Numbered from the stretch's first letter, positions 2,256 to 42,969 are shown. The stretch is 64,000 bases of DNA from an uncultured Solirubrobacterales bacterium (GCA_963819715.1 CAWFXE010000001.1:196332-260331), one strand, 5' to 3'. Program-made: numbers and translations. The notes: generated from the sequence alone by a model not told the origin.

Positions 2256-2299
2256 GCAGCAGGTTTGGAGAGCAGCTACCCCAGCGGGGATGGGGATGA

Positions 2300-8628: not shown

Positions 8629-8652
8629 CTTCAGGCAGCACCGCTCGGCGGT

Positions 8653-28897: not shown

Positions 28898-29045
28898 GAG
28901 AAGGGATTGGCCCGACGCGTGGGAATAGGTCCGAGCGCCCCCGACCCCAGACGCAGGGTGGTGATTCGCACAGATCGGCAATCCATCCTCTGGGACCACC
29001 GGGGGCGCGCTACAAGCGGATTGACCTAGACGCGCGAGTGATTGG

Positions 29046-29723
29046 GTGTTGCCAAACACCGGGGACCGGTGCGATAGTCGGGACATGGACGGGGACGAGT
29101 CGCCGCAGCACGAGCCCGAAGACCAGGCGGAGCTAGAAGAAGACGACGACCAGTACGAACTGGCCTACGTCATCTTCACCACGCCGAATATCGATTTCCC
29201 GGAAGCCGAGGCGCTACTGGACGCGATGGGTCAGTGTGCGACTGCGAACATCGAAGAGGTCCATCTATTGATCTCGACGTTCGGAGGAAACGTCACCGCG
29301 GGGGTCAACGCGTACAACATTCTTCGCGGCATGCCCTTTCGCCTCGTGACGCACAACACCAGCGATGTCATGTCCATCGGGGTTGCCGTCTACCTCGCCG
29401 GCGACGAACGCCTCGTTTGCCCGGACGCCAAGTTCTTGACGCACGGAGTCACCCACAGAACGACGGGCCAGGCTTTTGGGGCGCAATGGTTTGGCGACAC
29501 GCGCAAACTGATCCTTGCCGACGAGGCCAAAATCAACGCGATCCTCGCGGATCGCACGTCGCTTTCGTTGGACGAACTGGACGCGGCCGCTGGCACTGAG
29601 CACACGCATGACGCCGACGCAGCCATCGCTAATGGCATCGCCCACCGGAAAGAGGACGTAGACATCCCCGCAGACGCCTTGGTCCTCACGGTGACGACTC
29701 GAAATACAGTCGTTGCCTCGTGA
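29046..29723 (+). CDS. ClpP/crotonase-fold serine protease-like protein
   Basis: ORF of 225 aa. LLISTFGGNVTAGVNAYNILRGMPFRLVTHNTSDVMSIGVAVYLAGDERLVCPDAKFLTHGV parallels ClpP INSPGG..AG..IYD...ASMG...IMIHQP. Candidate Ser (MSIG) and His (THG) residues are present. The N-terminus is acidic. Confidence 0.6.
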   Translation: MLPNTGDRCDSRDMDGDESPQHEPEDQAELEEDDDQYELAYVIFTTPNIDFPEAEALLDAMGQCATANIEEVHLLISTFGGNVTAGVNAYNILRGMPFRLVTHNTSDVMSIGVAVYLAGDERLVCPDAKFLTHGVTHRTTGQAFGAQWFGDTRKLILADEAKINAILADRTSLSLDELDAAAGTEHTHDADAAIANGIAHRKEDVDIPADALVLTVTTRNTVVAS

Positions 29724-29760
29724 GATTGAGAGGTTCGGAAACCGCACAGTCCACTCCTAC

Positions 29761-29803
29761 TGTCAAGTCCCTTGACAAATGCAGAACTGTCAAGTATCTT
29801 GAC
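29761..29803. promoter_or_regulatory. two tandem palindromes TGTCAAG-N3-CTTGAC(A) upstream of the transposase start
   Basis: They lie at 29761-29777 and 29788-29803, with centres 27 bp apart and about 70-110 bp upstream of the ATG at 29871. Confidence 0.4.
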
Positions 29804-29870
29804 GGTTGTGCCCCCTGCGAATCGCCATAACCCAACACGGCAAGCGTCCTCAGACTCGGACTACTCGCTG

Positions 29871-30746
29871 ATGGAGTTCATGCAGGAGTTCCCTGACGAT
29901 GCTGCCTGCCTGGAACACCTGTGGCGATCCCGCTACTCGGAGGACGGCGAACATGCCGACTGCCCCAAGTGCGAGCGGGAGCGGGTTTTCAAGAAGTACG
30001 CGACCAAGCAGGGCAGGCAGTCTTGGACTTGCACGGGCTGCGGGCATCACATCCACCCGACAGCGGGAACGATCTTCGCCAAGTCCTCTACGTCGCTGCA
30101 CCTTTGGTACTACGCGATGTATCTGATGGCCAGCACTCGCTGCGGGATCTCCGCCAAGCAGCTAGAGCGCGAGCTGGGCGTGTCCTACAAGACGGCGTGG
30201 CGCATGTTCAACAAGATTCGGAACCAACTGATGGCCGACGATGGCGAGCCGCTGTCCGGCGATGTAGAGATCGACGAAACCTCCACGGAAGGCCGACCGC
30301 GCAAGAAGATGAATCCGCGAGAGGCGGCGCAGTACCGCGAACGTAGTCGGCAAACCGTGATTGGCATGGTCGAGCGCGGGGGCAACGTCAGGCTCCGCGT
30401 GATCGCCTCTCGGCGGGGTGCGCCCCTGCGTAGTGCAGTTCGCGCCAACGTCGATCCTTCCGCGCTGATCTTCACGGACGATTGGCCCGCCTACAACTTC
30501 GTGGGCCGGGAGTTCCTGGGCCATAGTCGGATCAATCACTCGGCGGGCATCTACGTCGATGGCGACAACCACACGAACACGATCGAGGGCTTTTTCGGCA
30601 ACCTCAAGACTGGGATGCGTGGGACGTACAAGCATGTCTCGGCCAAGTGGTTGCAGTCCTATCTGGACGAATACGCCTACCGCTACAACCGCCGCCACGA
30701 TCCGCGAGCGATGTTCACGGGACTTCTGGACAAGGCTGCCAAGTGA
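29871..30746 (+). CDS. IS1595-family transposase (N-terminal zinc ribbon + DDE domain)
   Basis: Within ORF 29772..30746 the likely start is MEFMQEF. Motifs: CPKC...CTGCGH, ISAKQLERELGVSYKTAWRM, VEIDET, FTDDWPAYN and NTIEGFFGNLK. Confidence 0.85.
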   Translation: MEFMQEFPDDAACLEHLWRSRYSEDGEHADCPKCERERVFKKYATKQGRQSWTCTGCGHHIHPTAGTIFAKSSTSLHLWYYAMYLMASTRCGISAKQLERELGVSYKTAWRMFNKIRNQLMADDGEPLSGDVEIDETSTEGRPRKKMNPREAAQYRERSRQTVIGMVERGGNVRLRVIASRRGAPLRSAVRANVDPSALIFTDDWPAYNFVGREFLGHSRINHSAGIYVDGDNHTNTIEGFFGNLKTGMRGTYKHVSAKWLQSYLDEYAYRYNRRHDPRAMFTGLLDKAAK

Positions 30747-30943
30747 CCAACGACGAAGCCATCAGGGGCATCAAGCAGGCCGCTAGGAAGCGCGAGAGAG
30801 CGGCTAAGGCCCGACAGGAAGCGACTGAGGAACTACGGCGCTACGTCGAGGCGGCACAAGCAGCCGGCGTTTCAATCAGTCAGATTGCTCGCGAGGCGGA
30901 TCTGTCTCGGCAGGGCGTTTACGACCTACTCGCCCACCAGTAA
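30743..30943 (+). CDS. small HTH protein translationally coupled to the transposase
   Basis: The GTG at 30743 overlaps the transposase TGA (GTGA). The translation is VTNDEAIRG...AGVSISQIAREADLSRQGVYDLLAHQ. Confidence 0.5.
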   Translation: MTNDEAIRGIKQAARKRERAAKARQEATEELRRYVEAAQAAGVSISQIAREADLSRQGVYDLLAHQ

Positions 30944-31052
30944 CGCGCTCCAAGAGCGAGTCAAAGTCTTTGCGCTTTGGAACGGGAATCTCCGTTCCCT
31001 TGGGCGTGCGCTGCTTACGCTGTCGCTTCGCCATCACGAATGAGAGTACTGC

Positions 31053-31604
31053 GTGGACTCCCACAGACTGACCGTCTACAAGGTCGAACTGAAATCGCAA
31101 TTGGAACTGGCAGCAATAGCCGCTGACGACCTAGAGACTGCGCGACAGAACAAGGCACCCGGGACGCTCTGGTACGCGCTCCAAGGAATTCTGATGATCG
31201 CCGGAAACGTCTCCAAGCTGCTTTGGGGCTCGTCGGGAACCGAGGAGCAGAGAAAGGCGCGAGAGCCCTTGCGAAAGGCATCGGGCGTGGCTGACGATTC
31301 ACCGCTGCGTCCACGGAAGGTGCGCAACGCTTTTGAGCACTTCGACGAACGCATCGAGGAGTGGTACGAAGTAGGCGATATCGCGACGTTTGTCTCGCGA
31401 AGCGTCGGATCAGGAACCAACGAAGTAATCAGGGGGCATGGCGTTCCGCATGCCTTCGGCAACTACAATCCACGAAACGGAATCGTTCGCTTCTGGGACC
31501 ACGAGGTTTCAATCCCCGATCTCGTGACCGAAATGGACGCGATCTGGGACCGCCTTTGGCCCGACGAGAAGCGTCGGCTTAGGCCACCAGCACCGGGCCC
31601 CTGA
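31053..31604 (+). CDS. hypothetical alpha-helical protein with HEPN-like Rx4H motif (RNAFEH)
   Basis: ORF of 183 aa starting at GTG. An in-frame TGA at 31041 limits the N-terminus. The motif R91-N-A-F-E-H96 follows predicted helices. The HEPN assignment is an inference only. Confidence 0.4.
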   Translation: MDSHRLTVYKVELKSQLELAAIAADDLETARQNKAPGTLWYALQGILMIAGNVSKLLWGSSGTEEQRKAREPLRKASGVADDSPLRPRKVRNAFEHFDERIEEWYEVGDIATFVSRSVGSGTNEVIRGHGVPHAFGNYNPRNGIVRFWDHEVSIPDLVTEMDAIWDRLWPDEKRRLRPPAPGP

Positions 31605-31730
31605 CGGGTGCGGCCACTCCGTATCGCAGTGCTCGGCGTGGTTCGCCTTCCACTGGAGTTCTAGCTCGGCTCGTAGCTCGGTGTTCTCTCGCTGCAGGGC
31701 GGCAAGTTCGTGCGTAGCGGGCTTGTCAGT

Positions 31731-31765
31731 TTCTACAGAGATGACCTATGCGTGACCGCGCTCAC
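31731..31765. repeat. right terminal inverted repeat
   Basis: TTCTACAGAGATGACCTATGCGTGACCGCGCTCAC. The outer 14-mer GTGACCGCGCTCAC is identical to the left copy and in the same orientation. Confidence 0.6.
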
Positions 31766-31800: not shown

Positions 31801-32166
31801 GTGATGACTCTGTTCAGGGCAATCCCGCTTCACGTGCACGCCGCTCTCGAGGTGGCCGCCGCCCCCATTTTGATGGTGGCGCCCTTCGCGCTCGGCTTCA
31901 CGGCCTTCGCGGGCGCCCTGAGCATCGCTCTCGGGATTTTGCTGCTTGGGCTCGCCGCGTCGGTCTATGGCGACACCGAGCGGGGGAATGTGCCCCTGAG
32001 TGCCCATGCGGGTCTCGACTACACGCTGGCCGCCGCCACCATCGCGGCCGGGGTCGTGGCGGGAATCGCCGGCGATTACGTCGCAACAGTCTTTTTGGTC
32101 GGGTTCGGCTCCGCGCACATGGCGCTGACCGCTTCAACGCGGTTCAGTCGTCCGCTCGGCGCCTGA
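31801..32166 (+). CDS. small integral membrane protein (hypothetical)
   Basis: ORF of 121 aa with four hydrophobic segments, followed by the hairpin at 32223-32251. Confidence 0.55.
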   Translation: MMTLFRAIPLHVHAALEVAAAPILMVAPFALGFTAFAGALSIALGILLLGLAASVYGDTERGNVPLSAHAGLDYTLAAATIAAGVVAGIAGDYVATVFLVGFGSAHMALTASTRFSRPLGA

Positions 32167-32198: not shown

Positions 32199-32252
32199 TC
32201 TCTCCTCCCTGTAGTACCCCTGAAACGGCCCTCTTTCCCGGAGGGCCGTTTC
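32199..32252. repeat. attL: 54-bp direct repeat including a terminator-like hairpin
   Basis: TCTCTCCTCCCTGTAGTACCCCTGAAACGGCCCTCTTTCCCGGAGGGCCGTTTC is identical to 42319-42372. Confidence 0.75.
32223..32251 (+). terminator. hairpin AAACGGCCCTC-tttcccg-GAGGGCCGTTT
   Basis: An 11-bp stem and 7-nt loop downstream of the 31801..32166 gene. The copy at 42343-42371 is followed by CGCTTTTCG and lies downstream of the convergent gene at 42396..42764. Confidence 0.55.
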
Positions 32253-32314
32253 TCTTATGGGTGCAGGTATTTTGTGGCCGTTGTCCAGCTAAAAAGCGGC
32301 GACGACGCGCCTTC

Positions 32315-32348
32315 GTGCGCCAGTCTGTGCGCCAGTGTGTGCGCCAGT
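32315..32348. repeat. three tandem GTGCGCCAGT copies (12-bp period), candidate integrase arm-type sites
   Basis: Copies at 32315, 32327 and 32339, about 63 bp inside attL. The same decamer occurs twice near attR. Confidence 0.5.
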
Positions 32349-32376
32349 CAGCGGCAGCGTAGACTCGCCCGGAGTC

Positions 32377-32937
32377 TTGACGAAGGCACGGGAGATCACC
32401 CGCGTCATCGACGCGCTGCTAGCCGAGCGCCCGGCGATGGTCGCTGCCTATGGCCTGGACAGCTGCATCATCTGCACTCGGATCGCCGTCGAGATCGCTC
32501 GTGGTCAGGGCTTGCGTATTGAGCCGCTCGCCGTCGCCGTCCGGCTGAGCAAGCAGGGATTGCCGGCCGGTAGCCTCGGCTTCACATCGCGGCCTCTGAC
32601 GACCGGGGATTGGGACGGCCATGTTGTCGCGGTGATCGAAGGCCGACACGCGCTCGACCTCACCCTCGATTCAGCGCGAATGGGCGGCTTCGACGTCGTG
32701 CCTGTGACTTTTGAGGTGGCCCCGGAATTCCGGCGCGGTGATGGCGAGGCGACCATCCAGGTCGGAGGCACCGAGGTCCGATATCAGGCGCGTCCGGACG
32801 AGAAGGAATACCTGAGTCTCGAGGACTGGAGTGACGTGGACGAGCGGAACCGTGTCCTGCCCTCATCCGCCGCCGGCTCACGGCCTAGGGAAACCGCGGT
32901 CGGGCCGGTGGACGTCTACTTGAACTTCCCGCAGTAA
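32377..32937 (+). CDS. hypothetical protein (possible Cys-His-Asp fold)
   Basis: ORF 32335..32937. The upstream part overlaps the arm repeats, so the TTG at 32377 is the more likely start. DSCIICTR ... WDGHVVAV ... LDLTLD are candidate catalytic residues. Confidence 0.45.
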   Translation: MTKAREITRVIDALLAERPAMVAAYGLDSCIICTRIAVEIARGQGLRIEPLAVAVRLSKQGLPAGSLGFTSRPLTTGDWDGHVVAVIEGRHALDLTLDSARMGGFDVVPVTFEVAPEFRRGDGEATIQVGGTEVRYQARPDEKEYLSLEDWSDVDERNRVLPSSAAGSRPRETAVGPVDVYLNFPQ

Positions 32938-33151
32938 TCCCCGATCGAGTCCCCGCGAGGTCGAGTTGCGCCTTCAACAGCGCTCGCTTGACGTCTTTCC
33001 CCTCGTGGCGCGGGCTTGAGAGCGTTGCCCCGTGATCTTCCTTCTCGAGAATCTTGTGGCTGCCAGAGGTTCGGCAGTGGACCCAGCCGAAGCGGACCAG
33101 CGCCCGGACATGCCTCTCCCCCGGCGCCAGGGGAAGATCCCGCAAGCCCAC
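32885..33151 (-). CDS. hicA: HicA-family mRNA interferase toxin
   Basis: ORF of 88 aa. ALVRFGWVHCRTSGSHKILEKEDHGATLSSPRHEGKDVKRALLKAQLDLAG matches the HicA pattern. Confidence 0.75.
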   Translation of the reverse strand: MGLRDLPLAPGERHVRALVRFGWVHCRTSGSHKILEKEDHGATLSSPRHEGKDVKRALLKAQLDLAGTRSGITAGSSSRRPPARPRFP

Positions 33152-33553
33152 TTAGCCTAGGCGGGCTGGCGTTCGTGCCGGTCTGGAGGGAACGGGAAGG
33201 CGTGATCCTTCGCCTCCCGCAAGGGAACGGTGATGCTCGTCGCCTGGCCCAAAATCGGGCATCTGTGTCGAGGTTGCCTCCCGCGCGGCTCGATCCATGC
33301 GCGCCCCGATGACGCCAACAATCGCCTCATTCAAATTCTCCAGAGCTTCCTGCTCGGTCTCACCCTGGCTGGCGCAGCCAGGCAGATTCAGGCAGAAAGC
33401 GACGAAGCCGCCATCGACTTCATCCTCTTCGACGAGCACCTCAAGCTGCAGCTGGTCGTCAACTGATGCTGCTCCTCGTCGACCCCCAGTATGCGCGCGC
33501 GGGTATTGCCAACCGCCCGCGAAGGCGTCGATCATCTTTTCCATGGGCGTCAT
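33152..33553 (-). CDS. hicB: HicB-family antitoxin
   Basis: LEVLVEEDEVDGGFVAFCLNLPGCASQGETEQEALENLNEAI is a HicB/UPF0150 signature. The stop abuts the hicA start. The start codon is uncertain. Confidence 0.7.
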   Translation of the reverse strand: MTPMEKMIDAFAGGWQYPRAHTGGRRGAASVDDQLQLEVLVEEDEVDGGFVAFCLNLPGCASQGETEQEALENLNEAIVGVIGARMDRAAREATSTQMPDFGPGDEHHRSLAGGEGSRLPVPSRPARTPARLG

Positions 33554-33700
33554 ATCGGATCCTGGGCTGTTGGGACTTGAGGAGCGCCCGTAGGCCCTTC
33601 GGGACGCGGCCACGCTCTACTGCATCTATTGCGTCTATCAGGCTACCCCGTCCGCAACCTGGGTTTCAAGCAGCGTTCGACTCCGAACGCCCAATCCCGC

Positions 33701-34876
33701 TCATAGCGCCAAATCCGCTGCAGGTTCACGCCCCTGCGCACCCAGGTAGGCGTCCATCCGCTCCCGCACCTCGTCATGGCTCCCGGGCATCAGGTGCCCG
33801 TAGGTGTCGAACGTCGTCTGGATCTTCGAGTGCCCCATGTAGGTCTGGATCGCCTTCGGATTGGCGCCCGAGTCGATCATCAGCGAGGCGAACGTGTGCC
33901 GGCACTCGTGGAGCGTGATCGGCTCGAGCTCGCTCGCCTCCCAGCACTCCTGCGCGCGGTTGTCGATCGTCGAAGGCACGAACGGGTCGGATCCGGTGCG
34001 GCCGAACACGAGCGCCTCGCCGGAGCGCCCGGTGGTGATCATGTACTCGTCGAGGTGATCGCGCAGGGTCGCCAGGAGCGGCACCGTCCGCCGACTCGAC
34101 TCCGACTTCGGGTCGATCGCGCCTTCCTCCTGGTCCCAGGATCGCTCGACGTGGATCCGCGACGAGGCCAGGTCGACGTCGACGCAGCGCAGCGCCATCA
34201 GCTCGCCGCGGCGCAGTCCGGCATAGAACGCCACCGCCCATAGAGCGCGGTCGCTGTCGGGCAGAACCGCGAGGAGCGCGGCTGCCTCCTCGGCCGAGGC
34301 GATCCGCTTCGGCCGGACGTTCCCCGGCACCGGCAGATCGATCCGCTCGGCCGGGTTGTTGGCGAGCTCGTCGCGGTCGATCGCGCGTCGGTAGAACGCC
34401 TGGACAGGGTTGAGGATGTTGCTCGCGCTGCCCGCGGCGAGCCCCTGCGCGAGCAGCTCGTCCGCCAGCTGCTGGACGTCGGCCCGCTGCACATCGCCGA
34501 CACGGATCGCGCCGAGTCGCGAGGGCTCGATGTAGTTGCGCACCGCCCGCTCGTAGGAGCGGATCGTGTTCGGCTTGTAGCGAGCTCGGTTCTTGGGTCT
34601 GACCGTGCCCGCCTCCATCCCCGCCACGAATTCGGCTAGGGCTTCGGCCAAGGTTCGCGCGTCCCGGCGGATCGGCCGCAGCGCGCCGCGGTTCGCAGCC
34701 GCCAGCGCATCGGCACGCCAGGACTTCGCCTCGGCCTCGCGAGCAAACGTCTTGCGGACCTTCTTGCCGGATCGCGGCAGGTAGACCCAGGCCTCGTATC
34801 CGGCGTTGCAGCTGCAGCGCCGACCCGATCGGGCGCCGCAGCCTCGTGAATGCCGTTTCGTGATCCCAGTGGCCAT
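33701..34876 (-). CDS. int: tyrosine-type integrase
   Basis: ORF of 391 aa with AFYAGLRRGELMAL, HECRHTFASLMI and MGHSKIQTTFDTYGHL. Confidence 0.9.
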   Translation of the reverse strand: MATGITKRHSRGCGARSGRRCSCNAGYEAWVYLPRSGKKVRKTFAREAEAKSWRADALAAANRGALRPIRRDARTLAEALAEFVAGMEAGTVRPKNRARYKPNTIRSYERAVRNYIEPSRLGAIRVGDVQRADVQQLADELLAQGLAAGSASNILNPVQAFYRRAIDRDELANNPAERIDLPVPGNVRPKRIASAEEAAALLAVLPDSDRALWAVAFYAGLRRGELMALRCVDVDLASSRIHVERSWDQEEGAIDPKSESSRRTVPLLATLRDHLDEYMITTGRSGEALVFGRTGSDPFVPSTIDNRAQECWEASELEPITLHECRHTFASLMIDSGANPKAIQTYMGHSKIQTTFDTYGHLMPGSHDEVRERMDAYLGAQGREPAADLAL

Positions 34877-35378
34877 CAGCTCGCCTCCGCGTAGGACAGC
34901 CCCTCGACGGCCAAAGCAGCGTCCAGCTGCGCCATCGCCACCGGCTCGCCGCCGGCTGTCGCTGGGAGTGGAACCTTGCGGCGGTGCTCATCGCCCACTC
35001 AAGGGCATCGAGCAGTGGCCGTGAGCTGTCCACCTGTTGGTCATCGAGCGGGCTCACGTCGAGCTCGGAGGACAACCGACTGTTAGCGATTCGTGCCATC
35101 GCTTCTGCGACGTGCGCCAGGACGTCGTCGTCTGCTTGGACCTCAGCGCGTGTTGGCGAGCTCGCGTTGAGCTCGTCCATTAGGTCGATCGCGGCGGACA
35201 AGTAGCGCGCCGGGCCGTGAAGATCCGCGGTCATGGGATCGTCGCGGGCAAGCAGGCGCCGACTCATCTCTTCGGCCTGCTGCTGCGCCCACTTTGCGTT
35301 GCTGTCGATCTCCGCGGCTACAGACAGCCGGAACAGCTCGACGTGCTCGGCGGGAATGCTCAGGGTTCTCTCAGCCAT
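34876..35378 (-). CDS. hypothetical protein upstream of int, reading frame apparently disrupted
   Basis: MAERTLSIPAEHVELF...DALEWAMSTAAR looks coding, then becomes R/W-rich. A second frame gives ...EPVAMAQLDAALAVEGLSYAEAS and stops at TGA, overlapping the int ATG (TGATG). This implies a frameshift near 34950. Confidence 0.4.
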
Positions 35379-35546
35379 GCGTGCCCTCTCCTCTTCCGGA
35401 GGGGACGCGAGCGGCGGATACGCTCCCGGGGCGCCGGGCTATCTATCCCGGTGCCACGGGGGCGGCGACACCACTCGCGCGCCCCATTTCTGTTGGGGCG
35501 ACCCTACCCGCCACGGTGGCCAGACGCAAGGGTCGCTCACAAGCCC

Positions 35547-35564
35547 TCGCAACGCTTCGCAACG
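35547..35564. promoter_or_regulatory. TCGCAACG-CT-TCGCAACG motif upstream of cargo gene 1
   Basis: An 18-mer repeated with one mismatch at 36338-36355, upstream of the next cargo gene. The two half sites are 10 bp apart. Confidence 0.35.
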
Positions 35565-35706
35565 GTTCCTTGGCTTGAGCCCTACTCGGCACACGCGCTA
35601 GGTCCGATCGCCCGCCCCTGGCCGTCTGAGGCCGCCTCGGCCGGCAGGAATCCGGGGAGGCCCCCTGGTGATCCGGGGGGCTTGTCCGTCGCGCTAGGCT
35701 CGCACC

Positions 35707-36318
35707 GTGCGCCGCCCGATTTCTCTCGCGATCCTCGCGGCCCTCGTACTCGTTGCCCTTGCCGTCGGCTTCTCGAGCGCCAACCGACCGACGGCCGCGA
35801 AGGGAGCGTCTACCTGCGGCGTCGAGCGCTGGGCAGTCAAGACCCTCTCTGATCCGCGCGAGAAGCTGGTCAGATTCAAGCCCCATGACACCTCGGTCGG
35901 CCGACTCGGTAAGAAGCCCGCCCCGCACGTCGGCTCTAGCACCCCGCGGATCAAGGGAGTGGAGACGACGACCTATCGAGTGCAGGCGCGCCTGGTCGAG
36001 ATGAAGCTCGAGGACGACCGCGACGTCCATCTCGTGATCGCCGTCCCGAGCGCACCCTCCAAGACGATGATCGTGGAGTTCCCCGACACGACCTGTCCGG
36101 GCGCTTCCAGCTCGCCGAAGAAGGCGAGAATGGCGAGCGCGAGGGCCTCGCTGATCGCGGCCTGTGGTCAGCCGTCGTCCAGCCACTTCACCGACCTCAG
36201 CGGCACGGCGACGGTGACCGGCGTCGGCTTCTTCGACGTCCCGCACGGGCAAACCGGGGTGGCACCGAACGCCATCGAACTCCATCCCGTGCTTAAGGTC
36301 GCTCGTCTGACCTGTTGA
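35707..36318 (+). CDS. secreted hypothetical protein (signal peptide)
   Basis: ORF of 203 aa. The N-terminus MRRPISLAILAALVLVALAVGFSSA looks like a signal peptide. Conserved-looking blocks: GVERWAVKT, DVHLVI, FFDVPHGQTGVAPNAIELHPV. Confidence 0.6.
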   Translation: MRRPISLAILAALVLVALAVGFSSANRPTAAKGASTCGVERWAVKTLSDPREKLVRFKPHDTSVGRLGKKPAPHVGSSTPRIKGVETTTYRVQARLVEMKLEDDRDVHLVIAVPSAPSKTMIVEFPDTTCPGASSSPKKARMASARASLIAACGQPSSSHFTDLSGTATVTGVGFFDVPHGQTGVAPNAIELHPVLKVARLTC

Positions 36319-36337
36319 GCCGGTAGCTGAGCGTCCA

Positions 36338-36355
36338 TCGCAACGCTTCGCAGCG
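36338..36355. promoter_or_regulatory. second copy of the TCGCAACGCTTCGCA(A/G)CG motif
   Basis: About 45 bp upstream of the start at 36400. Confidence 0.35.
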
Positions 36356-36399
36356 CTCTTGCGGACCCACTTAGCCCGGGCGCCCAGCACCATTGTTCG

Positions 36400-36651
36400 A
36401 TGCGGTACGTTCGCCGTGTGACGCGCTTTGTATTCGAATACGAGGATGAGTCCGGGGACTGGCAGGTTCTCGGCACGGCACAGGGGTCGGGCGACGAGAC
36501 GCACCTCGCCGACGCTCTGAAAGACCTCCAGGAGAATGAGCGCGAGGAATTGCGAGCGGGCCGCTACCGCTACCGGCCCGATGACGATTCGACGGAGCGC
36601 TCGACTGTCTTCACCCTGGATGCGAGCGGGCACGTGCACCTGTTGCCCTAG
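36400..36651 (+). CDS. hypothetical protein (83 aa, acidic)
   Basis: ORF with coding-like composition. No family recognised. Confidence 0.5.
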   Translation: MRYVRRVTRFVFEYEDESGDWQVLGTAQGSGDETHLADALKDLQENEREELRAGRYRYRPDDDSTERSTVFTLDASGHVHLLP

Positions 36652-36747
36652 GGAACCTTCAAAGTCGCCAACCCGCGCGGCATCACGCCATCTGGGCCTA
36701 TTGCCTGCCCTTGACCCGACCCATGTGGGCACGGGAGACTGGCCCAC

Positions 36748-37473
36748 GTGTTCGAAACTGCAACTTGGAGAACCGAGAACCGGCGGCACTTCGCTGTTGT
36801 GGAGCGTCTCTATCAGGAGGTTGGCCTGACGGTCAAGATCGAGGATTGGAACCTCGGCGATCACAGCGAGTTCGCTGCACTTCTCGCGCACCAGGTCGGC
36901 GCACAGCTCTTGAGCAGTTCGATCGCATTCGGCACGTCGCAACACGGGAAGGTTTCGAACCGTCGCAAGAACAAGGCCTGGGCCCCGGTCGAGCCGGAAG
37001 CCGGCGCACGAGCGGCCATCTTCCTCACTCTTGCGATGGCCGCGATGCTCTCTTCGGAGCTTGTTGAGGGCCTGGCCCCGCAGCCTGTCGAGCATGCGCG
37101 CCTTCTCGTGCAGAACGCATACTCGCCGCCCGACGAAGATCTGGAAGCGATCGAAGCCGTTAATACCCGAGTCCTCAACCGGCGTTCCTCGAAGGAAACC
37201 CAGGAGGCCACAGAACGCGGGGGCTTCGCGGCGAACATGATCGTGGAGGACGGCCGGGCGGCTCTTTGCTTTCAAGCACTTGAACTTGCCGGAGCCGATC
37301 CAGCGAACATGCCGGCCTTCGAGTTCGTGGCCGACGTCGATCAGTCGCAGTGGTATGACGTCCAGAACTACGAGTGGTTCGAAGCGGTTTCGATGGTCTT
37401 CCCCCCGTACTGGAACGCGGCGGAAGACAGATTCCTCGAAATCGCGTTCGCTCCCTTCGTCGAAGCGGAATGA
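36748..37473 (+). CDS. hypothetical protein (241 aa)
   Basis: ORF with coding-like composition. No family recognised. Confidence 0.55.
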   Translation: MFETATWRTENRRHFAVVERLYQEVGLTVKIEDWNLGDHSEFAALLAHQVGAQLLSSSIAFGTSQHGKVSNRRKNKAWAPVEPEAGARAAIFLTLAMAAMLSSELVEGLAPQPVEHARLLVQNAYSPPDEDLEAIEAVNTRVLNRRSSKETQEATERGGFAANMIVEDGRAALCFQALELAGADPANMPAFEFVADVDQSQWYDVQNYEWFEAVSMVFPPYWNAAEDRFLEIAFAPFVEAE

Positions 37474-37502
37474 CAACCGACTTCTGCGTCGGAGTCTGAG
37501 TC

Positions 37503-38607
37503 TCACTGGGCGGCCGGATAACCGTCTGCGTCGGGATGCAGGGCCGCCAGCTCCCCGTAGCTGAAGCCGTAGGCACTTGCCATGGACGCTCGCACGCAGT
37601 CGTTGCCCTTTCGCTTGAACTCACGACGGACGAGGCCGCCCGGTAGCCGCTCGACGCTGATCGGCTCCCGGGTCGCGCGGCCTCCTTCTCGATCACTTCG
37701 AGCAGCGCGGCGGTCAGATGCTCGAAGTCGCGCTGCACCTGATTCCTACCCGGGCCGGTTCTCGCCGCCAGCTCGGCACGCGCACGCTCCATTCGGGCCC
37801 CCTGCTTCTCTGCGTCCCGGGACAGATCCGGATTCGTGAGGCAGAAATGCTGCGGGGCGCCCCCGAAGCTCGCCATTGCGTCGCGGACCATTCGCCGCTT
37901 GCGCTGGCGCAGATGGATCGTCTGCATGCCCTCGATTAGCCGCAGCTGCTCCTCGGCGTCCGCGCCGGCGGCGGTCTCTTCGGCAGAGACCCACTCGTCC
38001 CAGTGGTCGACCATCGCGTCGGCCTGGGCGTAGAGGGCATCGTTCGCGAGCCGCTTCGTGGCCTCCACCTTGCGGCCCGCCTTGCCGACGTCCGCTCGCC
38101 TAACGGGCTCGGTCGCCTTGGGGATGTCGTCACCCTTCTCGAGCGCAGCCGCCGCGGCTGCCCGATCAGCGGCGGGTGCTGCCTCGTGGGCCCGGCGGGC
38201 ATCGTCGAGCTCGGCCTTCGCGGCGTAGAGGGCGGCAACGGCGGTCCTGGCCTTCGCCGCTGCCTTCTGGATCGGATCCGGCGCCTCCGTGCCTTCGGGC
38301 ACGACGTAGTGCAGATCGGGGTCGCCCCAGATCCGGCGCTTGGCTTCCTTGGTCGGTCGTGTCGCAGTCGCGGTGCTCATGCGTTTCTCCTCGTTGGAGT
38401 GGTCTTCGGGGGTCATGTCTTCGAGTGCCGGCTGGCGGTCGTCATCCGCCTCCAGGCCCGCGTCCTCGAGGGCCTGGCGTCGCGCGTCCCGGTACTCCGT
38501 CGTCTCGAACTTCGGATCGGGCTCGCCGGTGCCGCAGGGCGGTGTTGCGCTTCACCATCTCGTCGACGCGTGAGCTCGTCGGGGTTCTTGAATCGGCGGA
38601 CGCTCAT
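37503..38607 (-). pseudogene. hypothetical element protein, at least 3 frame changes
   Basis: Manual translation changes frame three times. It reads MSVRRFKNPDELTR, then RVDEMVKRNTALR, then GEPDPKFETTEYRDARRQALEDAG...MSTATATRP...EVIEKEAA (ORF 37175..38416), then REPISVERLPGGLVRREFKRKGNDCVRASMASAYGFSYGELAALHPDADGYPAAQ, with a stop at 37503. Confidence 0.45.
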
Positions 38608-38788
38608 CGCGACCACCCCCAGGCGGCGGGCTCAAGGTCGGTCTTGTGCCGCGTCGCGATCTTGGCCGCGCTGGCCTTGATCTCGGCGTCGATCTCCGGG
38701 AAGTCCCGGCGCACCGCGCGATCGCGCGCGATGATCGGCATCGATTTGTACGGCTCACGCTTGTAGGGGATTGTCTGTCGCCGGTCAT
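38604..38788 (-). pseudogene. small hypothetical protein with early frameshift
   Basis: The ATG at 38788 is preceded by AAGGAG. A natural-looking peptide TIPYKREPYKSMPIIARDRAVRRDFPEIDAEIKASAAKIATRHKTDLEPAAWGWSR lies in the adjacent frame. Confidence 0.35.
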
Positions 38789-39087
38789 CGGCGAGCTCCT
38801 TTCACTCGTTGTCTAAGTCGTTCGCACCGGTCCAGGTGACGATCGGCGACGTCGGCGGCGCCGAGCTTCGCGATGTGCTTCTCGAGCGCGGCAAGCTTTG
38901 CGCCGGCGGACTTCTTACTCGCACTCAGCTGCGCTGCCTTCTCTCGAATGGAGTCGGAGATGACTGCGGCCGGCGTATCGGGCTCGCAGGCCATCAGCAA
39001 GCGCGAGAGGTCGCGAAAGCGCTGCTCCGGATTCTCACCGGAGTCCGGCGGTTCGCTCTCGCGGAGATCGCGCCTAAGCCGCGCCAT
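38785..39087 (-). CDS. hypothetical protein
   Basis: Internal start MARLRRDLRESEPPDSGENPEQRF... within ORF 38785..39261. Confidence 0.4.
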   Translation of the reverse strand: MARLRRDLRESEPPDSGENPEQRFRDLSRLLMACEPDTPAAVISDSIREKAAQLSASKKSAGAKLAALEKHIAKLGAADVADRHLDRCERLRQRVKGARR

Positions 39088-39521
39088 ACGTTCCCCCCTT
39101 CGGGTGAGCCGCCGCTTGGCTCGGGATCTCCGGGAGCCGGCGTTCCATGGCGGGCGTGGGCGGCCTTCCGGGCCCGCCTGGTCGCCGACGTCTCGGGCGC
39201 GAGCTCGTCGTCTTCGGGGAACCCAAGCTCGCCGAGCAGGCTGCGCAGCGCGAGTCGACACGCGCGGAGCTCCGGGACCGCTTTATTGACGACGGCTGTC
39301 CCTTCGATCCCTCGACCATGACGCCATCGCGCCGAACGGCCGTCTCGAGCTGGGAGATCATGTCCTGCTGACGGCATGCTGTCGTCAGCAGGACCAGCTC
39401 GCGCGCATCGAACTCCGCAGCCGGATGGAGGTCCTCGAGCAGGCGCCTCCAGAGGGCCCTGCCGGCATTGCCGAGCCCCTTCGGTGCGGCCGGCCTCTTC
39501 GGTGCCGGCTCGCTCAGGCAT
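39074..39521 (-). pseudogene. phage small terminase subunit, P27 family, frameshifted
   Basis: Pieces lie in different frames. They read MPERAGTEEAGRT, then GLGNAGRALWRRLLEDLHPAAEFDARELVLLTTACRQQDMISQLETAVRRDGVMVEGSKGQP, then VVNKAVPELRACRLALRSLLGELGFPEDD. This pattern is typical of P27-type TerS. Confidence 0.55.
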
Positions 39522-39755
39522 CCCTGCCCCCCTGAAAAACCATCGTTTGAGCACTGCGCGGACCGGGGCAGTCCCAGCCCTCATTCGGTCCCGCGCGTGC
39601 GAGGCGGTAGTTCCCCCCCTGGTACCCCCGGGGGGTCCTGGCAAGACGGAGCGCTGGCGACGGGCGCGAAGACCCGCCGCCAGCGCAGCGGCGCCGCCGT
39701 GAGCACCGTCCCCGCCGGGGCCAAGGAATCGCCGGCGAAGTTGATCGACAAGTCA

Positions 39756-40187
39756 TCAGCAGACCTCCTCGGCGAGCGGGCGCTCGGCGTTCTCCTGCGC
39801 CCAGCGCTCGAGCTCCTGGACCGGGACCAGGCGCATCCGGCCGCGGCGGATCAGCTGCACCTCGTGCTGGACGTGTCGCTCGAAGCTGTCGAGTGACATG
39901 CCGAGGGCGGCTGCAGCCTCCTCGCGATTGAGCGCGATGCGTGGCACCGTCCGCTGGCTCACGCTGCGACCTCCTCGAATCGCTGCGAGCCAGTGGTCCT
40001 CCCACTCGGCGATCGCGGCGAGCGCACGGTCCGCGTCGCCGGCACGGCACGCCTCGTCGACCTCAGCCTCGAGCGGATCGAACTCAGCCGGGTCCGGGCA
40101 CTGATCGGGAGGCAGGGCAAAGAACGCAGCGTTCACACGGCGCACGGCACCGGCAAGAGCGGTGTTCACTCCGGGCAGGGTTGTCAT
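39756..40187 (-). CDS. WEDH-motif protein fused to (or followed by) an excisionase-family HTH
   Basis: ORF of 143 aa. The N-terminal half is paralogous to ORF 204..725. The C-terminal half reads IALNREEAAAALGMSLDSFERHVQHEVQLIRRGRMRLVPVQELERW, an HTH_17/xis-like sequence. Confidence 0.6.
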   Translation of the reverse strand: MTTLPGVNTALAGAVRRVNAAFFALPPDQCPDPAEFDPLEAEVDEACRAGDADRALAAIAEWEDHWLAAIRGGRSVSQRTVPRIALNREEAAAALGMSLDSFERHVQHEVQLIRRGRMRLVPVQELERWAQENAERPLAEEVC

Positions 40188-40918
40188 GCCGCCACTCCCA
40201 GCCGATCGGCCCAGCGTGCCGTTTGAAGTTCGACCTCGATCCGGTCCTCGAGATGATCGGTGAGTCGCTCGATCTCTCGGTCCGCGTGCGCCTTGATGCG
40301 CCCTCGCGATGTGGATCCCGACGACTCCTTCAGGTCGGCGATCTGCTGACGGATCTCGTCGAGGCCTGGCTCCTCTTCGTCATTGCCGGTGTTACCTGGA
40401 ATCGAAATCGCCGTTTCTATTCCGATTCCACTTCCGACTTCTACTTCCGATTCGGGCGACACAGCTCTGTCGCCCTTCTCGGCCCCAGGTGTCGCCCTTG
40501 CGGGCCCCTGAGTGTCGCCCTTCGCGTCACCACCGTCGCCCTTGGTCCGATCCGCCCCCTGCTTAAGGGCGACACTGCTGTCGCCCTTAAGGGCGACCGG
40601 GCTGTCGCCCTTGGGATCCCATCCGGTCCTCTTCCTCGTCGGCTGCGGCTCCGCTTTGAGCGGCAGCGCGTCGAGGTCGATCTGGTAGGTCCGAGGAGTC
40701 TTGTGCCCGCCTGGATGTACGACGCGCAGCGCGCCCAGCTCCTCGAGCCCGCGAACCCGGCGCTGCACCGTCCGGTAGCTGACCCCGAGCTTCCATGCCA
40801 GGTGGTCGATCCCAGGCCAGCAGAGATCGTCCTCGCGCTCCTCATTGACGTGATCGGCCATCGCAACGAGGACGCCCTGGAGCGCCGGCGGGAGCTCGCG
40901 TTCGAAGACTGCGCCCAT
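40184..40918 (-). CDS. HTH-domain replication-initiator-like protein
   Basis: MGAVFERELPPALQGVLVAMADHV...CWPGIDHLAWKLGVSYRTVQRRVRGLEELGAL is a winged HTH of the kind seen in phage/plasmid replication organisers. The central KGD-repeat region is encoded by the iterons. Confidence 0.55.
   Translation of the reverse strand: MGAVFERELPPALQGVLVAMADHVNEEREDDLCWPGIDHLAWKLGVSYRTVQRRVRGLEELGALRVVHPGGHKTPRTYQIDLDALPLKAEPQPTRKRTGWDPKGDSPVALKGDSSVALKQGADRTKGDGGDAKGDTQGPARATPGAEKGDRAVSPESEVEVGSGIGIETAISIPGNTGNDEEEPGLDEIRQQIADLKESSGSTSRGRIKAHADREIERLTDHLEDRIEVELQTARWADRLGVAA
40454..40612. repeat. iteron array GTCGCCCTT/AAGGGCGAC (8 full + 1 partial copies), candidate origin of replication
   Basis: Direct copies at 40469, 40491, 40514, 40535, 40580 and 40604. 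Inverted copies at 40565 and 40589. A partial copy at 40454. Spacing is 21-24 bp and includes the palindrome GTCGCCCTTAAGGGCGAC. Confidence 0.6.
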
Positions 40919-40984
40919 TAGTCGGCCGCTCACTCGATCCACCACCCGGGCGGGCCGGGTGGCGGGAACTGTCGGGCAGCAGAA

Positions 40985-41206
40985 CTAGGCTGCACAGGTC
41001 GGCCCGTCCTGGCCGTCTTTGACGGGGGCGCCCTGGTCCGGGCGCCCTTCGTCGTTCTGGAGGGACTCTCGAAGGCGGCGCTTCACTTCGGAGGAAACGG
41101 TCCGATCAGCCGCGGCTGCACGACGCCGCAGCGCCTCGGCCATCTCGGCGGGTATGACTGCGGCTACTCGCTCAGAGTGCGCAGGGTGAGAAGAGCTTGC
41201 CGGCAT
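40985..41206 (-). CDS. ribbon-helix-helix (CopG/Arc-like) protein
   Basis: ORF of 73 aa. IPAEMAEALRRRAAAADRTVSSEVKRRLRESL is typical of RHH proteins. Confidence 0.55.
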   Translation of the reverse strand: MPASSSHPAHSERVAAVIPAEMAEALRRRAAAADRTVSSEVKRRLRESLQNDEGRPDQGAPVKDGQDGPTCAA

Positions 41207-41444
41207 GGAGCCTCCACGAGAGATCGCGTCTATTCGTGCAGCGCCCTTCGGCGCTCAGAGGCCGCCATTCGGCAGCAGCTGGCAAGCGGGTGTGACGTTC
41301 GGCCGTTCGGCCTGTCGATCCGTCCCGGGTTGCCAGCGGTTTACTCATGGCCACGATTCTGAATTTTGGTTCGGACACCAAACCGTCAACAGCCGTGAGC
41401 GGTGGGGCCCCAAAGCGCGGCCTCCTCCAACTCCGGGGGCGACG

Positions 41445-41957
41445 TTAGAGCCCGAGCTGGGCCTTGATAGCAGCGGTGACGACGCTTTCGAGAATGGGTT
41501 GTCCGCGCTCCCATAGCCCGGGCGCTAATGCCTTGACGCGACCCCACCGCTTGCCCGCCTCCTCGTCCGATAGGTCGGGGTTGGCGAGTGCCTCGAGCTG
41601 CTCCTTCACCGTGAGTTCGTCGGCAGGATCAAGCTTCTCGTCAGCCAGCATGTTCTCGAGCTCGTAGATACGCCCCTGGCGATCAAGCCAGGGAAATGGT
41701 GACCCGCAGGAATCACAGAACCTGGGCTTGTCGTATCCACCGCCGAGCACTGCGACCCCTGGGACGTCGTAGTAGCCACGCAGCCGCGCCCCGCAGCTCG
41801 GACATTTCGTGAGAACTTCAGCGCCGCACTCGGGACACCGCGCCGGAACCTCCGAGTTCTCCAGGTTGGTCGTTTCGACATGGCCACGCCGGCAGATGGC
41901 CGCAGGCTTGTAGTGGGCCGACTCGTACTCCCGCCTACCGAAACCCCATTCCATCAC
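41445..41957 (-). CDS. zinc-ribbon protein (hypothetical)
   Basis: ORF of 170 aa with CPECG...CPSCG...CDSCG. Confidence 0.55.
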   Translation of the reverse strand: MMEWGFGRREYESAHYKPAAICRRGHVETTNLENSEVPARCPECGAEVLTKCPSCGARLRGYYDVPGVAVLGGGYDKPRFCDSCGSPFPWLDRQGRIYELENMLADEKLDPADELTVKEQLEALANPDLSDEEAGKRWGRVKALAPGLWERGQPILESVVTAAIKAQLGL

Positions 41958-42024
41958 TGCAGAGTACGTGAGCTACGGGGCCCGCTTGCCCGCACGGCGG
42001 GAGGGGTCGGGACTCTGAGATTCC

Positions 42025-42189
42025 TTATTCGTCGGCCTCCGGCCAAAGCGCCGCCTCGATGTTCGCGAGGTGCTCCTCGATGTCGATCAGCTTCGACTCC
42101 ATCGAACCCAGCGCGCCAACCTCACTCAGCACCGAACGGACAGCGTCTTCAATCTCGTCGAGTCGTTTTGCGATCTCCTCATTCGTCAT
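42025..42189 (-). CDS. small coiled-coil protein (hypothetical)
   Basis: Internal start MTNEEIAKRLDEIEDAVRSVLSEV... within ORF 42025..42240. Confidence 0.4.
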   Translation of the reverse strand: MTNEEIAKRLDEIEDAVRSVLSEVGALGSMESKLIDIEEHLANIEAALWPEADE

Positions 42190-42214
42190 CGGCCCGAGGC
42201 TATCGCGGCCTCCC

Positions 42215-42311
42215 GTGCGCCAGTCGTGCGCCAGTCCCACCCCATTTCAGGCGGTCTTGAGCGGTCCCAAGCGGTCCAATTCGTGCCTGAGTCTCAGATT
42301 CCGTGCCTGAG
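42215..42311. repeat. attR-proximal cluster of short direct repeats
   Basis: GTGCGCCAGT occurs twice (42215, 42226). GCGGTC occurs three times at an exact 10-bp period (42251, 42261, 42271). CGTGCCTGAG occurs twice (42282, 42302). Confidence 0.5.
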
Positions 42312-42318
42312 CGCCCGT

Positions 42319-42372
42319 TCTCTCCTCCCTGTAGTACCCCTGAAACGGCCCTCTTTCCCGGAGGGCCGTTTC
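42319..42372. repeat. attR: 54-bp direct repeat
   Basis: Identical to 32199-32252. Confidence 0.75.
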
Positions 42373-42395
42373 GCTTTTCGGGGGGAATCTGTTCG

Positions 42396-42764
42396 CTACG
42401 TGTGATTGGGCGGGTCGTCGGCGCCGCCGCCCCCGCCCCCACCGTTGCCGCCGCCTGACTTCCCTGAGATCTGGACCTTGGAGGCGATCCAGGTCCCCTT
42501 GGCGTTCTTGGTGGCTCTGACCTCCACATTCTTGAGGCCCGGCTTGATCGCGCCGAATCCTGCGATTCGCTGATATTTCGTATCAGCGGTGACCTTGATG
42601 GTGAAGGTACCGCCCCCCTGGCCCTGCTTCAGGCGGAACGTCTTGGCGGGCTTGTTCTTCGAGACCACGGTGCCCTCGAACTTGGCCGCCTGGGCCACCG
42701 CGGGCAACGCGCTGAGAAGTGCGATGGCCGATGCGGCGATCGCGATCTTGAGACGTGTGGACAT
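42396..42764 (-). CDS. secreted protein with Gly-rich C-terminus
   Basis: Internal start MSTRLKIAIAASAIALLSALPAVAQA (signal peptide). The C-terminus is GGGNGGGGGGG. Confidence 0.6.
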   Translation of the reverse strand: MSTRLKIAIAASAIALLSALPAVAQAAKFEGTVVSKNKPAKTFRLKQGQGGGTFTIKVTADTKYQRIAGFGAIKPGLKNVEVRATKNAKGTWIASKVQISGKSGGGNGGGGGGGADDPPNHT

Positions 42765-42969
42765 CTTGATTGCTCCTTCGGTAGTTGCGATGGATCCGAA
42801 GGTGACAGCCGATGGATACGTCAAGCCCAAGTTCAGGTTAGAAACGGGCAAAGCCTGGCCCCTTACCAAGGCTTAACCCAGTTCTTGCCATCCCGTGTCT
42901 CGTGCCTGGGGTTCCTCTGACGTTCGCCGCCAATAGTGGCCGCGACAGACAACGTTCAAGGAGGGATGT

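Follow-up and report, generated by a model that had tools for sequence, protein, structure and literature searches.

Results

An integrated element at an intergenic hairpin

The DNA analysed here is a stretch of 64,000 nt from an uncultured Solirubrobacterales bacterium (GCA_963819715.1, CAWFXE010000001.1:196332-260331), called the window below, and at positions 32199-42372 it carries what we identify as a genuine site-specifically integrated tyrosine-integrase element of 10.1 kb. Its limits are set by a perfect direct repeat: the 54-mer TCTCTCCTCCCTGTAGTACCCCTGAAACGGCCCTCTTTCCCGGAGGGCCGTTTC is found in exact copies at 32199-32252 and 42319-42372, with 10,066 bp between them, and the similarity of the two ends reaches 63 nt at 95%. 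These are the only two copies in the window, even when up to 3 mismatches are allowed, and none is expected (100 shuffles). The GC content of the element (about 0.62-0.71) and its third-position GC lie below those of the host genes, whose third-position GC (GC3) is 0.85-0.95. A first, sequence-only reading of this DNA had taken the repeat as the boundary of an integrative element, and both the exact copies and the empty site that we found in relatives (L032/L033, described below) bear this out.

The left copy, attL (32199-32252, +), opens with a recombination core of 22-23 nt (32199-32221), followed at 32222-32252 by the hairpin GAAACGGCCCTCT-TTCCC-GGAGGGCCGTTTC. The right copy, attR (42319-42372, +), holds the second core and hairpin, and its right flank, GCTTT, is that of the empty site. 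The hairpin occupies the 3′ 31 nt of the 54-mer and has a 5-nt loop; it had been noticed from the sequence alone, with a stem counted at 11 bp which we correct to 12 Watson-Crick pairs plus one G-U pair. For the attL region the folding energy is -40.4 kcal/mol (z = -3.8). On the element side, each core is bordered by arm-type repeats, as is typical of tyrosine-recombinase elements. Exact GTGCGCCAGT occurs five times in the window, always inside the element and beside the att cores. Three direct copies with 12-nt spacing form the P′ arm (32315-32348, +) and are putative arm-type integrase binding sites; the two others (at 42215 and 42226, spanning 42215-42235) belong to the P arm (42215-42311, +), together with two CGTGCCTGAG (42282 and 42302) immediately left of the attR core. 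We read this GTGCGCCAGT/CGTGCCTGAG layout as a classical attP arm organisation.

The 22-nt core is unchanged in all eight junctions that we aligned from six loci (alignment A6), and the crossover must therefore lie within it. Recombination is thereby assigned to the core and not to the hairpin. The core consists of the first 22-23 nt of the repeat, and the sister elements that have occupied the site carry a different, T-tailed hairpin in place of the native one. By this comparison the hairpin is part of the native site, and since the window's element brings a hairpin copy of its own, the identity extends to 54 nt. We also scanned one genome from each of 185,579 species for the hairpin core with a free loop, and obtained two loci, with a single copy each, in two metagenome-assembled genomes (MAGs) of uncultured Solirubrobacterales. 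A dispersed REP-like repeat was rejected on these two matches and on the two copies in the window, and the two matches also identify the host lineage.

On the left, the site is bordered by a gene for a 120-aa membrane protein (31801-32166, +), and attB lies in its 3′ intergenic region, about 32 nt past the stop codon. This protein has 753 homologs and is abundant in soil metagenomes; the top matches listed are 76-92% identical. On the right of attR, the open reading frame (ORF) at 42396-42764 (-) was confirmed as well. The insertion site is, to judge from the empty version in L032/L033, an intergenic hairpin region after a protein-coding gene and not a tRNA, as the sequence-only reading had proposed. 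The further proposal of a terminator shared by two convergent genes holds in part. The hairpin is native behind the membrane-protein gene, where it may act as a terminator, but the right-hand neighbour differs among genomes and a consensus terminator scan did not call the att hairpin.

Empty, scarred and occupied versions of the site

The same membrane-protein gene lies upstream of the core in L001 and in L032-L036. A clean empty site is found in L032/L033, which are the same locus in two ENA assemblies: the membrane-protein gene is followed by ...ACACACATA, the core TCTCTCCTCCCTGTAGTACCCC, a single native hairpin (GAAACGGCCCTC-TTCG-GAGGGTCGTTTC) and GCTTTC. This junction corresponds to the window's attL left flank fused to its attR right flank. 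An empty site had been predicted to comprise the membrane-protein gene, one repeat copy and then the secreted-protein gene; the gene, one core and one native hairpin are there, whereas the secreted-protein gene to the right is missing from L032.

L001 is syntenic with the window on the left of the site (membrane-protein gene 91% identical, further genes 83-91%), and it is devoid of the 10-kb element, with a 0.79-kb remnant between two cores. The first core leads into the different, T-tailed hairpin AGAGACCCCGCTTCGGCGGGGTCTCTTTTTT. The second is preceded by two copies of CGTGCCTG, as at the window's attR (L002, described below, has a single copy), and is followed by the native hairpin. In L034/L035 and in L036 we found the core, the alternative hairpin and arm-type repeats, with no second core and no element, and we interpret these loci as attL-type scars of earlier integration. 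The arm repeats of L036 are the window's own GTGCGCCAG motif, adjoining the core.

L036 is also the only locus syntenic with the right flank, from 42864 on (72% identity), which implies that what lies right of the element, a two-component system and an MFS gene, is chromosomal. The DUF5666 secreted-protein gene directly right of attR (42373-42863) has no counterpart in L036, L001 or L032, which have other genes for small secreted proteins there. On these comparisons, the DNA that adjoins the att site on the right is itself variable between genomes.

A lone att core with hairpin was observed in an unrelated chromosomal context in L002 (MAG MFD00822.bin.2.93, contig CAVTPZ010000014.1, 3740-4000), between SCO1/SenC-type genes and an SRPBCC gene. 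It has arm-like repeats on both sides (GTGCCAGAG two to three times on the left, GTTCGCCAG twice on the right), an attP-like layout without an element, and about 350 nt away lies a fragment that looks like the 3′ end of sec203 in the window. This copy is probably a relic of tandem or decayed elements. In L003 and L004, two contigs with related elements, we found neither the window's att site nor the terminal overlap of circular contigs, so that their integration sites must differ from that of the window. L003 also has a SCO1 neighbour, and we asked if it was the L002 locus; it is a different one.

Gene content of the element

In this very GC-rich host most of the listed ORFs are spurious, and we relied on codon-position GC plots and on profile searches to call genes. 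The functions first recognised by eye (integrase, hicAB, an xis-like helix-turn-helix (HTH) protein, a ribbon-helix-helix (RHH) protein, a replication gene with iterons and a P27-type small terminase) were all recovered with Pfam or PHROGs, the HTH_17 match being weak and the terminase match being obtained only across a frame break.

The tyrosine integrase (33701-34876, -) is a single-frame protein of 391 aa matching PF00589 (7.6e-23) and phrog_1 (2.1e-66, residues 28-383), in which LRRGEL, KSESSRR, HECRH, MGHSK and TYGHL can be recognised as the catalytic R, K, HxxR, H and Y motifs. It is preceded in its operon by a frame-broken pre-integrase gene (34880-35378, -), found by tblastn with a 116-aa protein of L004. 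Upstream of this operon lies a conserved non-coding leader (35385-35520, -) with a TAGAGT -10-like box and two hairpins. About 130 nt of it are 74-78% identical to L003 (8125-8298, with the leader at 8185-8318) and L004 (7928-8018, with the leader at 7925-8058), where the neighbouring genes are not alignable, and one hairpin shows compensatory changes in its upper stem, in a comparison of three sequences only. A search of Rfam returned no family, with sub-threshold noise only. Such a leader could be a regulatory RNA or operator, or else a packaging (cos/pac) site.

The packaging and replication genes are grouped on the same strand in the right half of the element. The terS gene (39074-39521, -) encodes a P27-family small terminase and is frame-broken; its read-through product matches PF05119 (1.7e-8; 35.2 bits for a cut-off of 24.7) and phrog_1496 (8.6e-21). 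Directly after it comes the post-TerS gene (38785-39087, -), a conserved, family-specific partner of terS encoding a helical protein of 100 aa. Upstream of terS lies an HTH_17 fusion gene (39756-40187, -), in which a conserved 78-aa protein forms the N-terminal half and an excisionase/AlpA-like HTH_17 domain the C-terminal half. The N-terminal half is 44-51% identical to 76-78-aa proteins of L003, L004 and L026, and the C-terminal half is 62% identical to a 70-aa protein of L037. Its match to PF12728 (4e-4) is weak and below the Pfam cut-off; the homologs in L003 have a precomputed PF12728 match. The rep gene (40184-40945, -) encodes an HTH_36, lambda-O-like initiator (PF13730 4.1e-7; phrog_391 2.3e-11; phrog_270 about 1e-11) and contains about eight internal iterons, GTCGCCCTT, in direct and inverted orientation at about 22-nt spacing (40468-40612; repeats D6, I14 and I20). 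An Arc/RHH regulator (40985-41206, -; PF03869 3.8e-5, above cut-off), a DUF2321 zinc-ribbon protein (41445-41957, -; PF10083 1.7e-21; phrog_16447 3.4e-17) and orf71 (42025-42240, -), a small helical protein without a PHROG family, complete this side.

On the left side, orf200 (32335-32937, +) probably starts downstream of the arm repeats and has no match in Pfam, PHROGs, PADLOC or NCBIfam. It is followed by a hicA toxin gene (32885-33151, -; PF07927 2.4e-11, 44 bits, above cut-off) and a hicB-like antitoxin gene (33152-33613, -; phrog_497 5.8e-10; PF15919 2.7e-4, below cut-off). In the middle of the element lie sec203 (35707-36318, +), a signal-peptide protein, and orf241 (36748-37473, +), both classed as cargo and both without a family or PDB match; the AlphaFold2 (AF2) model of orf241 was unusable, with a predicted local distance difference test (pLDDT) of 38. 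Between them is orf83 (36400-36651, +), which has no family match. The coiled-coil gene orf413 (37175-38616, -) is credibly coding from about 37685 to 38416; its 3′ 500 nt look like an out-of-frame run-on in the frame plot and translations, and its conserved N-terminus lies in another frame (38413-38616), the 71-aa and 79-aa homologs of L037 and L003 mapping to two frames. No homolog of its main part was found. Its AF2 model is all-helical with a long hairpin at pLDDT of about 90, and fold searches gave generic coiled-coil similarity only, with no meaningful match, which argues that this is not an HK97-type capsid protein.

With Pfam and PHROGs, none of the element's ORFs was recognised as capsid, scaffold, portal, protease, tail, head-tail connector, large terminase, holin or endolysin, in agreement with the absence of virion, large terminase and lysis genes first noted by inspection and then put to profile search. 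The unassigned ORFs gave no defence-system match in PADLOC. No primase or helicase domain was found in the element, its functional analogue being the O-like initiator with the iterons. No record was found when the integrase, the post-TerS protein and the two flanking proteins were looked up by exact sequence, and megablast of the whole element against phage and plasmid collections gave no match either.

A family of elements sharing terS and its partner

When TerS was read across two joined frames, 12 close relatives were obtained, among which P0001 is an intact 147-aa TerS 98% identical to that of the window. The TerS clade (48-98% identity), for which metagenomes were also scanned with an alignment of six TerS sequences, includes five other small elements: L003, L004/L005, L026, L037 and L038. 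P0001 and P0003 come from contigs of 10.9 and 10.8 kb (L003 and L004), and a JGI relative from a contig of 71.6 kb (L026) in which the entire element, about 10 kb, lies between host genes. These three share a replication protein of the DnaB-N/DUF3631 or DnaB-N/AAA_25 type, the conserved 76-78-aa protein, TerS, a small post-TerS protein and an integrase, that of L003 looking truncated. An HTH_17 protein is present in L003 and L004, and L026 has a small HTH protein which distantly matches the HTH_17 proteins of L030/L031. No virion gene was found in L003, L004 or L026 with Pfam or PHROGs. The layout of the window's element recurs in L037, which comes from a short-read assembly and has an HTH_36 Rep carrying its own internal iterons, HTH_17, TerS and post-TerS. 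The replication modules seen in the family are lambda-O-like with iterons, DnaB-N/DUF3631 or DnaB-N/AAA_25.

What comes after terS is a small ORF in each of the six contexts examined, the window among them, and in none is it a large terminase gene; in L038, this ORF overlaps terS. The window's post-TerS protein is 61% identical to a 105-aa protein of L003, also matches L026 and L037, and has only 19 relatives among 1.84e9 representative proteins. In contrast to these close relatives, the nearest phage TerS proteins, from Mycobacterium and Microbacterium phages, are only 40-41% identical (50,697 phage records and IMG/VR). L030/L031 contain a terS-like match that is weaker and partial (46-47% identity, C-terminal two-thirds); an RHH protein, a replication protein of the DUF3631 type and an HTH_17 protein are encoded upstream of it.

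In cos packaging, P27-type TerS is usually partnered by an HNH nuclease. Two relatives encode HNH endonucleases (L004, 7318-7908; L026, 4192-5028; phrog_374 5.8e-62; PF01844 2.3e-5), and the window's element has none. Together with the P27-type TerS, these genes suggest cos/HNH-type packaging for the family.

A second element of this family was observed in the window itself, at 1-2300 (-), running off the left edge. Its DnaB-N/AAA helicase-type replication gene (1132-2216) matches L026, L003 and L004 and is split over three frames, and its conserved 78-aa protein (207-434) is 54-58% identical to those of L003 and L004. This genome consequently holds at least two members of the family, both with frame breaks.

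Frame breaks in this copy

Aligned with its intact homolog P0001 from L003 (DNA alignment A1), the window's terS shows at least five indels, of +1, -1, +1, +1 and +2. Along the gene, the frame alternates between the ATG, the N-terminal 70 codons and the 52 conserved codons after them. The two genes are 83% identical in nucleotides overall and 97% identical in amino acids over the N-terminal 109 aa; the differences are mostly synonymous, which indicates past purifying selection. Programmed -1 frameshifting was considered and rejected, as there is no slippery heptamer at the break and there are four further indels.

The pre-integrase gene is broken as well. Its N-terminal part runs in one frame (from 35378), and its conserved C-terminal end, ...LDAALAVEGLSYAEAS*, is read in a different one (about 34888-34983), ending shortly ahead of the int ATG. 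A tblastn search with the 116-aa protein of L004 placed its residues 82-113 in frame -2 (E 4.8e-5) and its residues 38-89 in frame -3. Counting terS, this gene and orf413, there are at least seven frame breaks within the 10-kb element. The integrase, rep, hicAB and HTH_17 genes are intact. Among the host genes, those of 495, 261 and 181 aa shared with L001 are in single frame, and the large host genes over about 50 kb of the window are all uninterrupted. The conjunction of multiple breaks in the element and intact host genes nearby points most likely to decay.

Other features of the window

Just upstream of the membrane-protein gene lies a 2.9-kb transposon of the IS1595 family (28877-31751). 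It is bounded by 21-bp terminal inverted repeats (GCATAGGTCATCT[T/C]TGTAGAA) and a 14-bp target duplication (28863-28876 and 31752-31765; the near-palindromic GTGACCGCGCTCAC), and it carries a DDE_Tnp_IS1595 transposase gene (29772-30746) and two passenger ORFs, for a 98-aa HTH protein and a 183-aa protein. Its GC content is about 0.60, against 0.69 in the flanks, and the target is uninterrupted in L001 and L032-L036. Beside a tRNA-Asn gene (region 8558-9363), a gene for a 236-aa protein with an HTH-like N-terminus (8653-9363, -) has a GC3 of 0.66, compared with about 0.9 in its neighbours, and may be another small foreign insertion at a tRNA. An apparent second integrase (15813-16730, -) proved to be a housekeeping XerC/XerD-type recombinase and not part of a mobile element; the 560-aa ORF listed at that locus is an upstream run-on of this gene.

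Discussion

We think it probable that the 10.1-kb element belongs to an undescribed small family of uncultured soil Solirubrobacterales with the architecture of PICIs (phage-inducible chromosomal islands), and that the copy described here is decaying. The satellite reading draws its support at the level of the family, from comparative architecture. Indeed, a compact recurrent type, a modular replication gene and a conserved packaging pair give these elements the look of PICI-type satellites rather than of prophage deletion remnants, and their dependence on a helper phage would follow from the same features. The PICI-like gene content first perceived in the window is confirmed inasmuch as the combination of integrase, regulator, replication gene with iterons and terS recurs in the related elements; it is not for this copy, which has a broken terS and is probably no working satellite. 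With its packaging module broken, this copy most likely can no longer be packaged, and it may still be able to excise and replicate.

The comparisons show that the tyrosine integrase recombined an attP with the attB behind the membrane-protein gene, with the crossover inside the 22-23-nt core. From homology and layout, the rest of a life cycle can be proposed. Excision would be carried out by the integrase with the HTH_17 protein as an Xis/AlpA-like factor, and the lambda-O-like Rep would then fire the iteron origin inside its own gene. In a functional member, TerS and its small partner, joined by the HNH nuclease in some relatives, would redirect the large terminase and the capsids of a helper onto DNA of about 10 kb. 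HicAB and several further genes would be cargo.

A more specific proposal, to which we give even chances, is that these elements form a novel capsid-less satellite lineage of Thermoleophilia. Its members would redirect cos/HNH-type helper packaging with their own TerS, sometimes an HNH nuclease, and a private partner protein; they would exchange replication modules and carry an attP with a replacement terminator for the host gene behind which they insert.

Several observations weigh against the satellite interpretation and the decay of this copy. The intact P0001 scores 32.6 bits against TIGR01558, the curated P27 model, below its cut-off of 45.6. No close helper candidate was found in the phage records or IMG/VR, no excised form was found, there being no sequencing runs listed for this DNA, and no capsid-remodelling gene was recognised in the element. 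The window's replication gene is of another type than the primase-replicase of canonical PICIs. For six ORFs no relatives were detected, so that a very divergent structural gene among them is formally possible, and orf413 is the only unassigned ORF for which structure indicates that it has no capsid fold. Finally, sister assemblies from the same kind of data have split host genes, and the breaks seen here could accordingly be long-read errors.

This last point leads to the strongest alternative, namely that the frame breaks are errors of the long-read metagenome assembly local to the element, due for instance to lower coverage or to the mixing of reads among related elements in the community or the genome, and that the satellite is fully functional. 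In L033, SMC (159+399 aa) and MFS (112+390 aa) genes are split, whereas both are whole in L032; indel errors thus occur in long-read metagenome assemblies of this kind, and every frame break that we report has to be read with this in mind. Frame breaks also seem to affect the L003 integrase and the C-terminal end of a 350-aa ORF of L003. Of the five terS indels, three change the length of a short G or A run by one base, and most substitutions in terS are synonymous. The second related element in the window could, in addition, confuse read placement. Nevertheless, the large host genes remain uninterrupted over about 50 kb, three of them having been checked against L001, and the breaks are concentrated, with at least seven in the 10-kb element and the primase of the second element spread over three frames. 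Two of the terS changes, the insertion of 2 nt and the deletion outside a homopolymer, are not what homopolymer errors typically look like. We regard a fully functional copy hidden by assembly errors as a real but unlikely possibility.

It is a good deal less probable that the element is a non-phage integrative or mobilizable element, or an integrated plasmid, conjugative or immobile, in which the TerS-like protein would be a DNA-binding regulator or a recombination-directionality factor. The size of about 10 kb, the set of int, xis-like and rep genes and the high-GC actinobacterial host do resemble actinomycete integrative and conjugative elements (AICEs) such as pSAM2, as te Poele and colleagues are said to have described them in 2008. 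Furthermore, TerS falls below the curated NCBIfam cut-off given above. Against this, Pfam scans of the element and its relatives detected no FtsK/SpoIIIE-type Tra, Nudix, Spd, Kor or relaxase domain. Phage small-terminase profiles cover TerS in full (phrog_1496), the corresponding proteins are so annotated in actinophages, and two relatives encode the HNH nucleases that usually accompany P27-type TerS in cos packaging.

A defective prophage, that is, a temperate phage which lost its structural and lysis genes and kept the integrase, early genes and terS, would suit the phage-type integrase, O-like Rep, Arc-like regulator, HTH_17 and TerS as well as the several broken genes, but we consider it very improbable, since a large internal deletion would have had to spare two ends whose att copies are intact and identical, five independent relatives with differing replication modules have the same compact size and the same terS/small-ORF junction without TerL, host genes enclose the whole L026 element within about 10 kb, the post-TerS gene is rare and specific to the family, and the best TerS in the phage records or IMG/VR reaches only 40-41%.

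If the elements are indeed a true satellite family, PICI-type parasitism reaches a deep lineage of soil actinobacteria that is uncultured and very abundant, and a capsid-less, TerS-bearing type is added to the satellites of Actinomycetota. The occupied, scarred and empty versions of attB document in nature, with unusual clarity, how elements repeatedly integrated and decayed at one site, and they confine the crossover to a core of 22-23 nt. The TerS and post-TerS pair could serve as a specific marker to mine soil metagenomes and viromes for such elements, and matching cos/HNH/TerL modules could lead to their helper phages. As this copy is probably degenerate and its host uncultured, it is a lead for comparative and virome work and not a ready experimental system.

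Comparison with known systems

As defined in SatelliteFinder, the components of a PICI are an integrase, a regulator of the AlpA, MerR or Stl type, a primase-replicase, a capsid-morphogenesis gene and terS; tail, holin, portal and head-tail connector genes are forbidden, and type B PICIs are without the capsid-morphogenesis component (PMC10085698). In the element we found the integrase and none of the forbidden genes, and neither a primase-replicase nor a capsid-morphogenesis gene. For the regulator there is the sub-threshold HTH_17 match (4e-4) together with the Arc/RHH regulator, and for terS the homology is clear, in a gene which is frame-broken in this copy. The element, as judged from these components, is PICI-like by layout and is no sequence relative of the described PICIs.

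With classical pac-type PICIs such as SaPI1 and SaPIbov1, in the sense generalised by SatelliteFinder, the element shares a size of about 10 kb, a tyrosine integrase, flanking direct repeats, small DNA-binding regulators, its own initiator with an iteron origin, its own small terminase and accessory cargo, and also the lack of capsid, portal, tail, large terminase and lysis genes. The sequence relation, however, is limited to generic domains. The SaPIs have a primase-replicase, whereas the initiator here is lambda-O-like (HTH_36) and that of the relatives DnaB/DUF3631 or DnaB/AAA_25. The TerS is of the P27 type, which usually goes with cos/HNH packaging, in contrast to the pac type of these islands, no homolog of Cpm, Ppi or Rpp was recognised, and the host belongs to Thermoleophilia. 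Moreover, induction and packaging are putative for the present family, and the terS of this copy is broken.

Closer in terms of host are the candidate PICIs of Mycobacterium, including phiRv1 and phiRv2 (PMC10654092; PMC10085698). The sequence-only reading had placed PICIs outside such high-GC hosts, which was an overstatement: PICI variants were reported in 66% of mycobacterial genomes (SatelliteFinder, PMC10085698), and other actinobacterial satellites are known. The mycobacterial candidates are, like the present elements, small integrated phage-like islands of high-GC Actinomycetota, taken as satellites by computational prediction, with mobilisation not yet shown. They differ in being defined by a major capsid protein gene plus an integrase, while the present family has no recognisable capsid gene, and in that many sit in tRNA genes, while the element here lies after a protein-coding gene.

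Streptomyces MulchRoom and MiniFlayer (PMC10690885) and the Mycolicibacterium EPIPs (PMC12822802) are also actinobacterial satellites with small genomes (about 11 kb for the EPIPs), and the EPIPs have a small terminase and an HTH protein in common with our element. These satellites, however, have genes for capsid, portal or adaptor proteins (the EPIPs also for a tape-measure protein), none of which was recognised here. They were isolated as particles, unlike the present family; and where the element has a tyrosine integrase, the EPIPs rely on one of the serine type and MiniFlayer lacks an integrase.

Two further systems resemble parts of the element. As in lambda O and ori-lambda, the origin is an iteron array inside the initiator gene, which PHROGs annotates as "replication initiation O-like"; only the N-terminal winged-helix region matches, however, and the element has no P-like helicase loader. 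AICEs of the pSAM2 and SLP1 type have in common with it the host phylum, the size class, the int-xis-rep backbone and site-specific integration, but their FtsK-like Tra, spd, kor and nudix genes were not found here, and a phage small terminase is present instead.

In the literature that we searched, there was nothing on phages or satellites of Solirubrobacterales, and the satellites of Actinomycetota described so far all carry capsid genes. What the present elements would bring, if our reading of their sequences is right, is PICI-like satellites in a new host class, Thermoleophilia, of a kind which is itself already known.

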